A stretch of 64,000 nt of DNA, from positions 10,953 to 74,952 of the forward strand of contig JASMKZ010000002.1 of assembly GCA_030748955.1 (NCBI GenBank). Reading direction: 5' to 3'. The position numbers and the translations under genes were made by a program. Position 1 is the stretch's first letter, and every line of letters starts with the position of its first letter. Positions 18,744-24,662 of the stretch are shown one piece after another. Origin of the DNA: Fidelibacterota bacterium. GTDB taxonomy: Bacteria; Fidelibacterota; Marinisomatia; SCGC-AAA003-L08; D37C17. The notes beneath the pieces were generated by a model. It searched no databases. It worked only from the letters and a program-made list of their open reading frames with translations, and was not told the origin of the DNA.

Positions 18744-19799
18744 ATGAAAAATGTTTTTCTTATTCCATTCATTTTTATTTTGGCATGCTCAAATAAAAAT
18801 ACTCTAAATATGGATCATCATAATACCCGAAGTTTTCAATTTACCTATGAAGTTCTAGTAGAGCCCACCCATGGTAATAAACTGGAATTGTGGCTTCCAG
18901 TACCCACATCCAGCAATGTTCAGGAAATTTCAAATTTGCAGATAATGAGTGAACATTTGGCATATACAGTAAAAGATGAGCCCATACATGGGAATAGATA
19001 TCTGTATATTTTTAGTAAAATGGGAATAGCTAATCCAACTACAATAACCATGACATTTGATGTACATCGGAAAGAACATGGCAATATTGCAGATAAAAAT
19101 GCAGACCCAAATAATTATTTAGGGTCATATAGCAATGTGCCAACTGGCAATATTTTTACCAAAATCATTAATGAAAATGATTTGTCTAGAAATGATATAA
19201 GAGGCATTTATGATTTTGTTTTTGAGGGGATGCATTACGGAAAACCGAAGAGTGTGGATAATATTTACTATAAATCCCCCTGGTTGAATGCAGAAAATCT
19301 GTATGGTCAGAAAGGAGTAACTCGAGATGATGTGGTGAGATTGTATCAACAATCAAAAAATGATGGTGGAGATTACACGTTTGGGAAAGGCAACTCTATT
19401 TATGCCTGTAATATCGGTGTGGGAAACTGTACCGATTACCATTCTTATTTTATGTCATTGGGACGTACCTTGGGTGTGCCTGTTCGTTTTCATATGGGTT
19501 TTCCTATTCCATCTGAGCGCGAGGGTATAGTTGGTGGCTACCACTGCTGGGCAGATTATTATGTTGAGGGCGAGGGCTGGTATCCTGTAGATATTTCGGA
19601 GGGAGATAAAGATCCTCAGCGTAAGGATTATTATTTTGGTACCTTAGATAATAACCGTGTTGAAATGATATTGGGTAGAGATATTAAATTGGAAGGCTAC
19701 GAAATGGGAACTACTAATTTATTCATATATCCTATTATGGAAATAAATGATCAAACCTCCTCTGCCTTTAGTAAAAGTTTTCAATATAAAGAAATATAA
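18744..19799 (+). CDS. Transglutaminase-like domain lipoprotein
   Basis: Lipobox ILAC; Cys-His-Asp triad motifs GNCTDYH, HCWADYY, WYPVD. Confidence 0.9.
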   Translation: MKNVFLIPFIFILACSNKNTLNMDHHNTRSFQFTYEVLVEPTHGNKLELWLPVPTSSNVQEISNLQIMSEHLAYTVKDEPIHGNRYLYIFSKMGIANPTTITMTFDVHRKEHGNIADKNADPNNYLGSYSNVPTGNIFTKIINENDLSRNDIRGIYDFVFEGMHYGKPKSVDNIYYKSPWLNAENLYGQKGVTRDDVVRLYQQSKNDGGDYTFGKGNSIYACNIGVGNCTDYHSYFMSLGRTLGVPVRFHMGFPIPSEREGIVGGYHCWADYYVEGEGWYPVDISEGDKDPQRKDYYFGTLDNNRVEMILGRDIKLEGYEMGTTNLFIYPIMEINDQTSSAFSKSFQYKEI

Positions 19800-19857
19800 T
19801 TATTACATTAATAATTAACTATCATTTAATTAATTAAAAGTTCTATCTTTTGGATTA

Positions 19858-20241
19858 ATGAATGACAGCAAAATAAACTATAAAGATATTCTAAATCCGG
19901 ATGAGTACCGAATAGCCAGAGAGGGTGCCACGGAAGCACCATTCACTGGGAAATACTGCAGCCTCTTTGAACCGGGCACTTATCTCTGTATTTGTTGCGA
20001 CACCCCCCTTTTCAGTTCTGAAACAAAATATGATTCCGGTGGCGGATGGCCTGATTTTACAGGAGCAATAACCGAAGGTTTAATAAAGTATGTGGATGAT
20101 TTCAGTTCTGGGGAAAAACAGATTGAAGTCAAATGCAATCATTGTGATGCTCACCTGGGACATGTATTTGATGATGGTCCACCGCCGGATTTCAAACGCT
20201 ACTGAATCAATTCTGCATCCCTGAAGTTTCAGGCAGAATGA
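19858..20241 (+). CDS. msrB: Peptide-methionine (R)-S-oxide reductase MsrB, predicted selenoprotein (UGA at 20203-20205 = Sec116), 127 aa
   Basis: GTE.PF, two CxxC Zn motifs, GWP.F, HLGHVF.DGP; in-frame TGA at the catalytic Cys of RY[C]INS.SL.F; frame continues INSASLKFQAE to TGA at 20239-20241. Confidence 0.9.
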
Positions 20242-20243
20242 TT
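20205..20243 (+). promoter_or_regulatory. Putative bacterial SECIS element
   Basis: ATTCTGC(20210-16)/GCAGAAT(20233-39) stem, ATCC bulge, CTGA/TCAG upper stem, AGTT apical loop starting 19 nt after UGA. Confidence 0.75.
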
Positions 20244-20251
20244 TTGGATTA

Positions 20252-20280
20252 GGTATGAAAATTAACTTAATTTTCATACC
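20252..20280. repeat. Perfect 14-1-14 inverted repeat
   Basis: GGTATGAAAATTAA-C-TTAATTTTCATACC. Confidence 0.9.
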
Positions 20281-20319
20281 GATGCAAGGGGAAGAAATAT
20301 TAAACTTTTACACTGAGAC

Positions 20320-20347
20320 AACCTCAATTTATTTGGGGTTTTTTTTT
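20320..20347 (+). terminator. Intrinsic terminator between msrB and carA
   Basis: AACCTCAA-tttat-TTGGGGTT hairpin (one G-U) followed by a T run. Confidence 0.65.
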
Positions 20348-20383
20348 ACTCAAAATGTTTATATCCAGCAATAATACAAATTA

Positions 20384-21469
20384 ATGACTAAATCTGCAAA
20401 ATTAATACTTGAAAACGGAACCATATTCTCTGGGATTTCTTTTGGTGCGGAGGGAGAAACTATCGGCGAAGTTTGTTTTAATACAGGTATGACAGGCTAT
20501 CAAGAAATTCTCACCGACCCCTCTTACTGCGGACAACTCATCACTATGACGTACCCGCATATTGGTAATTATGGTGTAAATGAAGAAGATATTGAATCTA
20601 ATAAAATTTATGCTGCTGGCTTTATTATTAGGGAAGAAAATGTCGTTCCATCAAATTATAGATCGACACAATCATTGGGTGAATATTTACGGACTCAAAA
20701 GATTGTGGGCATCCAAAAAATTGATACGCGCATGCTCACTCGAATTCTTCGAGATGAAGGCGCCATGAATGGTATAATCAGTACCGTTGATTTGGATGAT
20801 GATTCCTTGCTTCAAAAGGTTAAGATGGCCCCTTCAATGGATGGTTTAGATTTAGCCAAAGTGGTGACTTGTGATAAAAGCTATAAATGGAGCAAAGGGA
20901 AATATAAAATTGCTGCCATTGACTTCGGTATAAAACATAACATTCTTCGATTACTTGAATCTCATGGATGTGACATAACCGTTTTTCCTGCAACTGCTTC
21001 TGCAACTGAGATATTAAACATAAATCCTGATGGAATTTTTCTTTCTAATGGCCCCGGTGATCCAGCTGCAGTTACGTATGGAATTAAAACTGTAAAAGAA
21101 CTATTAGGTAAAAAACCCCTTTTCGGTATATGTTTAGGACATCAGATTTTAGCCTTGGCTTTGGGTGCTAAAACCTATAAACTGAAATTTGGACATCGAG
21201 GCTGTAATCATCCGGTAAGAAATGAGGCAACAGGAGTAGTTGAAATTACCAGTCAAAATCATGGGTTTGCGGTGGATGCAAATTCATTATCTGAGAATAT
21301 GGAAGTTACTCATTTGAGTTTGAATGATCAAACAGTAGAAGGTTTAAAATGTACAAATGTGCAGGCATTTTCAGTTCAGTATCATCCCGAATCTAGTCCG
21401 GGGCCACATGATAGTCGGTACTTATTTCAAAATTTTATAGACATGATGACGGAAAAAGAATATGCCTAA
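20384..21469 (+). CDS. carA: Carbamoyl-phosphate synthase small subunit
   Basis: [33 protein letters not shown] motifs. Confidence 0.98.
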
Positions 21470-24400
21470 AAGAACTGATATAGAATCCATATTAATTATT
21501 GGCGCCGGACCCATTATTATTGGGCAGGCCTGTGAATTTGATTACTCTGGCACTCAGGCTTGCAGGGCTTTGCGGGAAGAAGGCTATAGAATCATTTTGG
21601 TGAACTCCAATCCGGCTACTATTATGACAGATCGCAATCTGGCAGATGCCACATATTTAGAGCCGATAACTTCAAAAGCTGTGACGGCTATTATTGAGAA
21701 AGAACAACCGGATGCTCTCCTTCCCACCGTAGGTGGTCAGACTGCACTTGATACGGCAATGGCGTTACACAAAGATGGTGTTTTGGGAAAATATAAAGTG
21801 GAACTTATTGGCGCTAATGTTGAGGCAATCCAGCGGGCTGAGGATAGGGAAGAATTCAAAATTGCCATGGATGAGGTGGGTATTGAAACTGCCCGGGGTG
21901 GATTTTCCAATACAATGGATGAAGCCGACAAGGTTATTGAAGATATACCCTTTCCGGTAATTATCCGGCCCTCATTTACCATGGGAGGCACTGGTGGTTC
22001 TGTGGCCTATAACGTGGAAGAGTTTCATGAATTAGTAGAAAATGGATTATCTGCCAGCCCTATTTCAGAAGTGCTCATCGAAGAATCTTTGTTGGGTTGG
22101 AAAGAGTATGAAATGGAAGTCGTCCGTGATGGTATGGATAATGCCATTATTATCTGCTCTATTGAGAATTTGGACCCTATGGGTGTGCATACTGGTGATT
22201 CAATTACGGTTGCTCCAGCACAGACACTCACTGATAAAGAATACCAGAAAATGCGAAACTGGTCAATCCTATGCTTACGAACAATTGGTGTGGATACTGG
22301 CGGATCAAATGTACAGTTCACCGTGAATCCTGTTGATGGTAGAATGATCATTATCGAAATGAATCCCCGTGTGAGCCGTTCATCAGCTCTTGCATCCAAA
22401 GCAACAGGGTTCCCCATTGCCAAAGTGGCGGCTAAGCTTGCAGTGGGGTATACTCTAGATGAACTGCAGAATGATATTACCGGGCAGACGATGGCTGCCT
22501 TTGAACCCAGCATTGACTATGTGGTAACCAAAATCCCCCGATTTGATTTTGAGAAGTTCCCTTCAGCATCCGGAATATTAGGTGTTCAAATGCAGTCGGT
22601 GGGTGAAGTAATGGCCATTGGTAGAACTTTCCGTGAAAGTCTGCAGAAAGCATTCCGTTCATTAGAGGTTGGGCTGAATGGATTTGAACCGAAGGAAACT
22701 GAATACCGCGATTTGGATCTGGGTAAAATTCGTTTTGCTTCAGCTTTCCGATTACTAAAAGTAAAACAGGCGTTTGAAGAGGGACATTCTATTGAAGATG
22801 TTTTTGAACAGACTAAAATTGACCCTTGGTTTTTATATCAAATTCAGAAATTAATATCTGTGGGGGCAGAATGCATTCCACCTTTTAAAGGAAAACAATT
22901 CAATGTTTCCCTACGAGAATTAAAACAAAATGGCTTTTCAGACCACCAAATCGCCCAGAAGTGGGAAAAAACTGATGATGAAATTCGACAGATGCGAAAG
23001 GATGAAAATATCCTACCAACATACAAAGTGGTAGACACATGCGCTGCGGAGTTTGAAGCACTCACTCCCTACTGTTATTCCACTTACGAAACGGAAAATG
23101 AAATTACATCTATAGAAGGAAAAAAGATGATGATTTTGGGTGGTGGTCCCAACCGAATTGGCCAAGGGATTGAGTTCGATTACTGCTGTGTTCAGGCTGT
23201 ATTTGGTTTGAAAGAAGCCGGCTATAAAACCATCATGGTAAATTGTAATCCGGAGACAGTTTCTACCGATTTTGACATTGCAGATCGCCTATATTTTGAG
23301 CCCCTCACATTTGAAGATGTGATGAATATTGTGGATTTAGAAAATCCAGATGGTGTTTTGGTTCAGTTTGGGGGTCAAACACCTCTCAATATTGCTAATC
23401 GTTTAAAAGATGCAGGGGTAAATATTATTGGTACCAATCCTGATGCCATTGATCTGGCTGAAAATCGTGATAAATTCGGGAAAATTTTAGATGGCTTGAA
23501 AATTCCTGTACCCAAGTGGGGAACTGCTTTTTCTGTGGATGAAGCCTTGGTAGTGGCTCATGATGTGGGATATCCCGTTTTGGTTCGACCCTCTTATGTA
23601 TTGGGTGGCAGGGGAATGGAAATTGTTTACGATGACGATGGCCTCAAAACCTATGTGGGTAAAGCCGCACTGGTTTCAGGTGAGCATCCTATTTTGGTGG
23701 ATGCCTTTTTAGAAGATGCCTTTGAGTTTGATGTGGATGCCCTCTGTGATGGCACTGATGTTTTTGTGGCAGGAATTATGCAACATATTGAAGAAGCTGG
23801 CATACATTCGGGAGATTCGGCCTGTGTACTACCAGCTTATGAGCTCACATCAACATCTAGAAGATTGATTAAAGATTATACCAAAGAATTGGCATTGAGT
23901 TTGAATACCGTTGGGCTCATTAATATCCAGTTTGCAATGAAGAATGATGTAGTATATGTGATAGAAGTAAATCCGCGGGCAAGTCGAACCGTGCCATTTA
24001 TTAGCAAAGTGATTGATTTTCCATTAGCCAAAGTAGCGGCACAATTAGCAGTGGGTAAAACGTTGTCTGAATTTGAACTTCCATCCACATCTAAAAATGA
24101 ACTTATTGCAGTTAAGAAGCCTGTATTCCCTTTTAATAAATTTCCTCAACAGAATGTATTTTTATCGCCGGAAATGAAATCCACTGGTGAAGTAATTGGA
24201 TTCGATAAACATTTGGGTAGCGCATATGCTAAAGCAGAAGCTGGTGCCGGAAACTCATTGCCTGAGAAGGGTACTATTTTCATTTCTGTAAATAATTTAG
24301 ATAAGGTTAAGGCCATTCCGCTGGCGCGGGATTTTCAAGAATTGGGATTTGATATCATTGCTACCAATGGCACAGCAGACCTTTTATCTGAAAATGGTGT

Positions 24401-24662
24401 GGCAGCTCGCCCCATATTTAAGGTAGGTGAGGGTCGCCCAAATGTTGTGGATGCTATTAAAAATGGCGAGGTTCAGTTGGTGGTAAATACGCCCATGGGT
24501 GCTCAGGCTCGAGAAGATGAATATGAAATTGGCCGTTCTGCCATCCGCCATAAAATACCAGCCATTACCACCATCTCTGGAGCACAGGCAGCAGTGCGGG
24601 GAATTCGAAATATTAAGAATGGTTCACTTCAATACCGCAGTTTGCAGGAGGTGTTTGGATAA
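21462..24662 (+). CDS. carB: Carbamoyl-phosphate synthase large subunit
   Basis: [22 protein letters not shown]; two ATP-grasp domains; C-terminal MGS domain. Confidence 0.98.

Follow-up and report, generated by a model that had tools for sequence, protein, structure and literature searches.

A probable selenocysteine insertion element in the last codons of a methionine sulfoxide reductase B gene from a Marinimicrobia (SAR406) bacterium

Bacterial selenocysteine insertion sequence (bSECIS) elements have been summarised by a consensus comprising a loop of 3–9 nt on an upper stem of 4–16 bp, a G as the first or second loop nucleotide with, in most cases, G or U after it, a spacing of 16–37 nt between the UGA and the loop, and a minimum free energy (MFE) of -7.5 kcal/mol or lower (PMC13188914). 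In Escherichia coli fdhF, the SECIS is a 40-nt element containing a minimal 17-nt stem-loop (nt 15–31) that starts 11 nt from the UGA, with U17, G23 and U24 as critical nucleotides, and unpairing of its lower part (nt 4–14 with nt 32–41) costs approximately 25% of read-through (PMC8659212). The present study concerns a hairpin at the 3' end of a methionine sulfoxide reductase B gene (msrB), located in a 64,000-nt stretch of contig JASMKZ010000002.1 (positions 10,953 to 74,952 of the forward strand; assembly GCA_030748955.1), which is hereafter called the window and whose first letter is position 1 of all coordinates given without a contig. An earlier note on this DNA had described the hairpin as SECIS-like. 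We conclude that it is very probably a bacterial SECIS serving a selenocysteine (Sec)-containing MsrB of a Marinimicrobia (SAR406) bacterium, an interpretation supported by its fold, by a UGA at the codon of the catalytic Cys, by conservation and covariation of its apical part and by absence of the structure from Cys-type genes, as well as by the Sec machinery genes selA and selB and further predicted selenoprotein genes in the same genome. The features of the locus, all on the forward strand, are as follows:

19858..20241, +, full-length selenoprotein-type msrB of 127 codons plus stop, with codon 116 as the predicted Sec codon (SelR and TIGR00357 matches)
20203..20205, +, putative Sec-UGA codon (position of the catalytic Cys in homologues)
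20206..20216, +, 5' arm of the lower helix (ATC.ATTCTGC), comprising the Ile-Asn-Ser-Ala codons (pairs with 20233–42 in the MFE structure)
20220..20233, +, conserved core of the probable SECIS, a 5-bp apical stem (20220–24 with 20229–33) closing AGUU (RNAalifold, covariation)
20225..20228, +, apical loop AGUU, with G20226 and U20227 as the presumed SelB contact (invariance in orthologues)
20234..20242, +, 3' arm of the lower helix (CAGAAT plus GAT), including the Glu codon and the stop codon
20239..20241, +, true msrB stop codon (a UGA in this sequence), located at the hairpin's 3' base

The hairpin agrees with the structural rules of the bSECIS consensus, having a 4-nt loop with GU at its positions 2 and 3, a 5-bp stem, a spacing of 19 nt and an MFE of -13.9 kcal/mol (hairpin 20204–20244, RNAfold on 20203–20250). 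As expected of a bSECIS, the stem-loop is also contained in the open reading frame (ORF) and immediately follows an in-frame UGA whose counterpart in homologues is Cys. Compared with the consensus model, its upper stem is near the short limit, consisting of four invariantly paired positions and one variable pair. Like the fdhF element, it is situated within the ORF immediately 3' of the presumed Sec-UGA, extends over approximately 40 nt and carries G and U at positions 2 and 3 of a tetraloop. Counted from the U of the UGA, the msrB apical hairpin occupies nt 18–31 and the lower helix pairs nt 4–14 with nt 31–40, a geometry similar to that of fdhF; the loop is AGUU with G24 and U25 here, as against GGUC with G23 and U24 in E. 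coli, and is therefore placed 1 nt farther from the UGA. The 3' end of the msrB element, unlike that of its fdhF counterpart, coincides with the stop codon of the gene, and the two elements have no sequence similarity.

The ORF listing terminates msrB at TGA 20203–05, which is preceded by the codons CGC TAC. When this TGA is read as Sec (U), the product continues as ...DGPPPDFKRY-U-INSASLKFQAE* and matches the Pfam domain SelR (PF01641, positions 1–115/116, E = 2e-45) and the MsrB model TIGR00357 (160.6 bits versus a cut-off of 113). The zinc motifs CICC and CNHC and the catalytic RY[U]INS are all present, as in a full MsrB domain. In 172 distinct Cys-type homologues from many phyla, the position of the UGA is taken by the catalytic Cys of the motif RYC[IV]NS. 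Among the order's 74 genomes, 14, which represent five genera of two families, have TGA as the catalytic codon. A search with the truncated product returned mostly marine metagenome proteins, including those from Tara, and 119 of the 120 best protein clusters end in ...RY, which indicates that gene callers cut them at the same UGA. Database versions of the Sec-type MsrB (ENA, JGI, NCBI and Tara; P0002–P0121) are approximately 115 aa long with this same ending. Beyond the UGA, 11 codons are conserved as protein (INSASLKFQxE), with variation mostly at third codon positions.

The listing of a 115-aa product ending in ...RY by gene callers and databases alike would also suit a truncated or decaying msrB, whose conserved codons, in an AT-rich sequence, gave rise to the hairpin by chance. 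We regard this as extremely unlikely. A product ending at Tyr115 would be without the catalytic residue, and the 11 post-UGA codons are conserved, with third-position variation and a fixed stop, in 14 genomes and more than 100 metagenome clusters; the compensatory changes and codon choices described below also argue against decay.

Positions 20203–20243 read TGA ATC AAT TCT GCA TCC CTG AAG TTT CAG GCA GAA TGA TT. The earlier note had described a stem of ATTCTGC (20210–16) with GCAGAAT (20233–39) below a bulged ATCC (20217–20), and in the sequence this complementarity is exact, the ATCC is unpaired and the coordinates agree. The upper stem of CTGA (20221–24) with TCAG (20229–32) and the loop AGTT (20225–28) are likewise present where they had been placed, the spacing of 19 nt between UGA and loop is exact (20206–24), ATC (20206–08) can extend the base by pairing with GAT (20240–42), and a second in-frame TGA (20239–41) is found 36 nt downstream in the 3' arm, all as the note had it. 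This hairpin, whose 14-nt apical part is CCUGAAGUUUCAGG, is the favoured fold, the RNAfold MFE and centroid structures of 20203–20250 both being equal to the structure noted, and it is retained when folded within a 201-nt context.

For comparison among orthologues, the Sec-type set comprised 21 distinct 48-nt sequences 3' of the UGA from Marinimicrobia genomes and marine metagenomes, with extra DNA variants obtained by exact-protein look-up. The Cys-type controls were 172 distinct sequences, including metagenome homologues of approximately 50% identity, all of which were Cys-type. RNAalifold kept one helix only in the Sec-type alignment, namely 20220–24 with 20229–33 around AGUU, which was 97.1% paired across the 21 sequences, and the four core pairs and the loop G were kept in every one of them. 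Compensatory changes among Sec-type orthologues, named as a check by the earlier note, were observed at two apical pairs in several lineages. Pair 20221/20232 is C-G in 16 sequences and U-A in five, a switch that replaces CTG by TTG for Leu and CAG by CAA for Gln, both synonymous, and that occurs in three gene-tree clades (L101/L202, L102/L203 and L207), with both codons in agreement in 21/21. Pair 20220/20233 is more variable (C-G 11, G-C 2, U-A 2, U-G 2, G-U 1 and mismatch 3), and includes a double change between the sister genomes L097 and L098. None of 500 shuffles matched the observed covariation score or fraction paired, and in slid-partner controls the pairing fell from 89% to 28–46%.

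The loop is equally constrained. Its G, which had been singled out as the feature for SelB binding, and the two following U are invariant in all 21 sequences; the sole variant loop is GGUU, which accompanies a Lys to Arg replacement, and the spacing of 19 nt from the UGA is the same in all orthologues. A GC-rich codon choice had also been claimed for the hairpin and holds against genome usage, in which AAG, CTG and TCC account for 23%, 11% and 12% of the Lys, Leu and Ser codons, respectively. AAG is fixed at the loop Lys, except in the Arg variant, despite its low usage, and the Leu codon is always CTG or TTG, which jointly account for 29% of genome Leu usage; the nearby Ile, Ser and Ala codons are free at their third positions. 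A decaying msrB is at odds both with the fixation of these rare codons and with compensatory changes at synonymous sites, which go beyond protein constraint. Judged from the aligned sequences, clear selection acts on the apical 5-bp stem with AGUU, 14 nt in total.

Absence of the pairing from Cys-type orthologues had been proposed as a further check and was borne out: the core pairs together with a G at loop position 2 occur in 1 of 172 Cys-type sequences versus 21 of 21 Sec-type sequences. No consensus structure was obtained by RNAalifold for 12 Cys-type Marinimicrobia sequences (0 pairs). Individual Cys-type genes, including those of Marinimicrobia, still fold into assorted hairpins at this site, and the hairpin in the window is situated at the end of the ORF and over the stop codon, as would be expected of a 3'-end mRNA element (terminator, stabiliser or carA regulator) unrelated to decoding. 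We consider such an element very unlikely, as the hairpins of the Cys-type genes are not conserved, whereas the apical hairpin tracks the UGA, at a fixed distance from it, across the two gene types. No T-run directly follows the hairpin, and an intrinsic msrB terminator (20320–49; AACCTCAATTTATTTGGGGTT then T9) is present 80 nt past it, upstream of carA, with compensatory changes of its own in relatives (AGCCTC...GGGGCT and AGCCTCG...CGAGGCT).

A single Cys-type msrB (L214:45-434; ENA ERZ27258814 contig k141_990581), 77% identical to the gene in the window, branches within the Sec-type genes in the tree, at a point where the branching order of the clade is not resolved. At its 3' end the gene reads ...PTGQRYCLNSASLRLKPAP and is unable to form the hairpin, which points to either a Sec to Cys reversion or a replacement of the 3' end by recombination. 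This 3' end (APTGQRYCLNSASLRLKPAP) resembles that of an ordinary Cys-type gene. Separately, several of the Cys-type msrB genes L104–L118, which belong to another Marinimicrobia family, fold long hairpins over the stop codon with loops of 11–15 nt, for example AATTCAGTTTCG...CGAAATGAATT at -10 kcal/mol; no structure common to this group was found with RNAalifold.

The lower part of the hairpin behaves differently from the apical part. Its stem is 84.7% paired across the 21 orthologues with no genuine compensatory change, and the third base of the Ser codon disrupts a pair in 10 of them. At least six of its seven pairs can form in 14/21 Sec-type versus 4/172 Cys-type sequences. The hairpin described in the earlier note is thus upheld in its apical 5-bp stem and AGUU loop, which are under clear selection, while its 7-bp lower stem is often imperfect and shows no covariation; we consider the lower stem probably real but loosely constrained. 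A lower stem common to Cys-type genes, as a "fossil SECIS", was considered and rejected, given the lack of a Cys-type consensus and the 4/172 above.

The stop codon lies 12 codons after the presumed Sec codon in 19 of the 21 sequences (TGA 10, TAA 8 and TAG 1), and the other two have TAA at codon +13. The earlier note had further suggested that one RNA element separates a recoded UGA from a terminating UGA. This functional contrast was rejected, as 11 of the 21 orthologues terminate with UAA or UAG, and because the identity of the terminator varies, the pairing of two UGA codons in the window is incidental. The alignment shows conservation of where the stop lies, at the hairpin base, and not of which stop codon is used.

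The metagenome-assembled genome (MAG) from which the window derives is 1.79 Mb in size in 355 contigs, with 91% completeness and approximately 31 tRNA genes recovered; the genomes closest to it are Marinimicrobia/Neomarinimicrobiota MAGs. It encodes selA and selB adjacent to each other on contig C199, both above curated cut-offs. Across the order, selB was above cut-off in 61 of 74 genomes and tRNA-Sec was found in 57. Six of the eight genomes of the genus have selD, each copy with one in-frame TGA, and SelD is therefore probably itself a selenoprotein in the genus; examples of these selD loci are G350:C217:604-1527 and G222:C14:3138-4061. Further selenoprotein genes were sought in the genome as TGA codons within a CxxU or UxxC motif, followed by the requirement of a Pfam domain spanning or abutting the motif, and this combination proved workable. 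The predicted genes are:

C111:61760, +, glutaredoxin, NW-U-GPC (Pfam-supported)
C255:7447, +, Prx-like protein (AhpC/TSA-type, dockerin domain), PN-U-PVC (Pfam-supported)
C290:1133, -, Trx-like TPR protein, DT-U-PGC (Pfam-supported)
C296:9214, -, GrdB-like protein, PV-U-PVC (Pfam-supported)
C292:398 (-), C296:9315 (+) and C333:44043 (+), three candidates with no Pfam hit over the motif

The Prx-like, Trx-like and GrdB-like genes have stems of 5–7 bp with loops of 3–5 nt (AGUUA, UGGAU and GUU) 16–18 nt after the UGA, and an unassigned candidate with the motif HQT-U-NLC has a loop CGGGA at 20 nt. Loops of these other selenoprotein genes begin with (N)G[G/U], which suggests that the host SelB reads such mini-hairpins. 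The hairpins of the Prx-like, Trx-like and GrdB-like genes differ from that of msrB in sequence and loop size, and their ORFs run far past the hairpin. Judging by its gene content, the organism evidently decodes Sec. As a finder of selenoprotein genes, a genome scan for TGA followed by a 4-bp stem and an NGUN tetraloop was discarded; it returned 13 matches for TGA versus 20 for TAA and 6 for TAG, and with no excess for TGA the pattern is unable to find such genes alone.

Several observations weigh against the SECIS interpretation. The fold energy of the single sequence is unremarkable, with an RNAfold z-score of -1.98 and 8 of 200 shuffles of 20203–20250 equally stable, and a similar hairpin is found after 4–6% of the genome's ordinary stops or coding positions, as a chance by-product in a decaying msrB would also have it. 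On these values thermodynamics by itself is mildly unusual, and it is the orthologue comparison that lifts the hairpin above chance. Of the orthologues, 11/21 fold weaker than the -7.5 kcal/mol rule in their 48-nt windows. Three of the five apical pairs are invariant and say nothing about structure in either direction, because they are located in conserved codons. The bulged U of fdhF (U17) is missing, the apical stem being continuous, and the unpaired U20218 below it is G in five of 21 orthologues. No Rfam SECIS family matched positions 19800–20400 at E values up to 10, the only hits being chance matches to snoRNA and miRNA families. Given the lack of a bulged U and of an Rfam match, the hairpin, although it would function like the E. 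coli SECIS, fits the general bSECIS model and not the fdhF type in the narrow sense. Lastly, neither tRNA-Sec (Infernal best 34.8 bits; called tRNA-Ser by ARAGORN) nor selD was found in the window's own MAG at its 91% completeness; as sister genomes have both, these are most likely assembly gaps.

In other systems, read-through of a stop codon can be enhanced by structure downstream of it. This, together with the missing tRNA-Sec and selD, would favour a read-through of the msrB UGA that is independent of SelB, either by a near-cognate Trp or Cys tRNA or through a general stimulator, with the hairpin merely slowing the ribosome. Such a route appears exceedingly improbable, as the genome carries selA and selB and its sister genomes have tRNA-Sec and selD, and the invariant G and U of the tetraloop, at a distance from the UGA like that in E. 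coli, are a signature of SelB. Furthermore, Trp at the position of the catalytic Cys would inactivate the enzyme, and 243 of the genome's 1039 long ORFs end in TGA as their ordinary stop.

Under the SECIS interpretation, the ribosome would arrive at UGA 20203–05 with the downstream mRNA folded, and the 5-bp apical stem would present AGUU with G20226 and U20227 at 24–25 nt from the U of the UGA. SelB carrying Sec-tRNA(Sec) may then bind the apical hairpin, contacting the loop G and U, via its C-terminal winged-helix domains and deliver Sec to the A site. The catalytic residue 116 would become Sec and translation would run 11 codons further, these codons (INSASLKFQAE) doubling as protein tail and hairpin. 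The lower helix (20206–16 with 20233–42) would stabilise the structure within the genus and be dispensable, as is the lower helix of E. coli fdhF. The real stop at the 3' foot of the hairpin would need no special discrimination, because no SECIS-type hairpin follows it at the right distance and half of the orthologues use UAA or UAG.

At the protein level, the closest described parallel is vertebrate MsrB1 (SelR/SelX), in which Sec replaces the catalytic Cys in the same motif, as it most likely does here. Kim and Gladyshev reported that Sec-MsrB requires a resolving Cys for recycling by thioredoxin (PMC1278935), so that a Cys specific to the Sec-type proteins is expected if Sec is truly decoded here. 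The usual resolving Cys of the motif GCGWP is absent from all 21 Sec-type proteins, which have SG[GS]GWP instead. In all 21, residue 34 is a Cys within the motif G-x-Y-C (codon 19957–19959 in the window), whereas the Cys-type proteins of Marinimicrobia carry Tyr there. Cys34 may be the resolving residue, in which case a selenenylsulfide would result. A different, N-terminal Cys takes the resolving role in Xanthomonas MsrB (PMC1278935), and MsrB1 has an extra lineage-specific Cys of its own, Cys4 (PMC1278935), as Cys34 would be here. The approach to the catalytic position also differs between the two types, being PP[DN][FY][KR]RY-U in Sec-type (PPPDFK at 20182–20199 in the window) versus PxPTGxRYC in Cys-type proteins. 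The active-site His and Asn (GHVF and INS) are kept in the bacterial protein and lost in MsrB1 (PMC1278935). Vertebrate MsrB1 has its SECIS in the 3' untranslated region, as a kink-turn bound by SBP2, whereas the hairpin here is within the coding region and presumably read by SelB. The two appear to have independent origins, as the bacterial Sec clade branches inside the Marinimicrobia MsrBs.

The RNA element itself is most likely an ordinary bacterial SECIS, and it is the family of its host gene that is less ordinary. MsrB, SelR and PF01641 are absent from the bacterial selenoprotein lists of a 2026 review covering >110 families (PMC13188914), of PMC9312934, of the Global Ocean Sampling (GOS) selenoproteome (PMC2398784) and of the Sargasso Sea survey (PMC1088965). 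All three names are likewise absent from PMC5029168, from PMC1794560 and from deep-Sep with its supplements (PMC12013277), and they do not occur in the main text of BSepDB, tables apart (PMC13326102), whereas several of these sources include MsrA; the MsrB family may be recorded elsewhere. On this basis we tentatively propose, as a possibility that we rate well below the SECIS assignment itself, that the hairpin is the SECIS of an uncatalogued bacterial Sec-MsrB family, which would have arisen inside Marinimicrobia independently of MsrB1, be widespread in ocean metagenomes and be annotated everywhere as a truncated 115-aa protein. The same proposal holds that the tail codons and the stop position are shaped mainly by the RNA, such that the C-terminal tail is for the most part carried along as a "passenger" of the SECIS, with the stop selected to keep the whole SECIS translated.

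Recognition of the Sec codon would correct a recurrent database annotation error, in which these MsrBs (119 of the 120 best clusters) appear without a catalytic residue because they are truncated at that codon. If the bacterial Sec-MsrB has a resolving Cys of its own, it would also represent an independent natural replicate of the Cys-to-Sec transition of mammalian MsrB1. The element would be a very compact SECIS, with 14 conserved nt located wholly inside the last 12 codons of the gene. Its natural compensatory variants, together with the GGUU loop variant and the Cys-type relative without a hairpin, constitute a ready mutational series that would be useful for the study of SelB recognition outside Proteobacteria and Firmicutes.

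The gene order around msrB in the window is a transglutaminase-like protein gene (18744–19799), msrB, carA (20384–21469) and carB (21462–24662), and the order msrB then carA recurs in several Sec-type metagenome contigs. A second hairpin, with a perfect 13-bp stem (GGTATGAAAATTA-ACT-TAATTTTCATACC), is located at 20252–20280, 10 nt past the msrB stop; it has no G in its loop, no T-run and no Rfam match. It is followed on its 3' side by a conserved GATGCAAGGGGAAGAAA stretch, and both are conserved within the genus.

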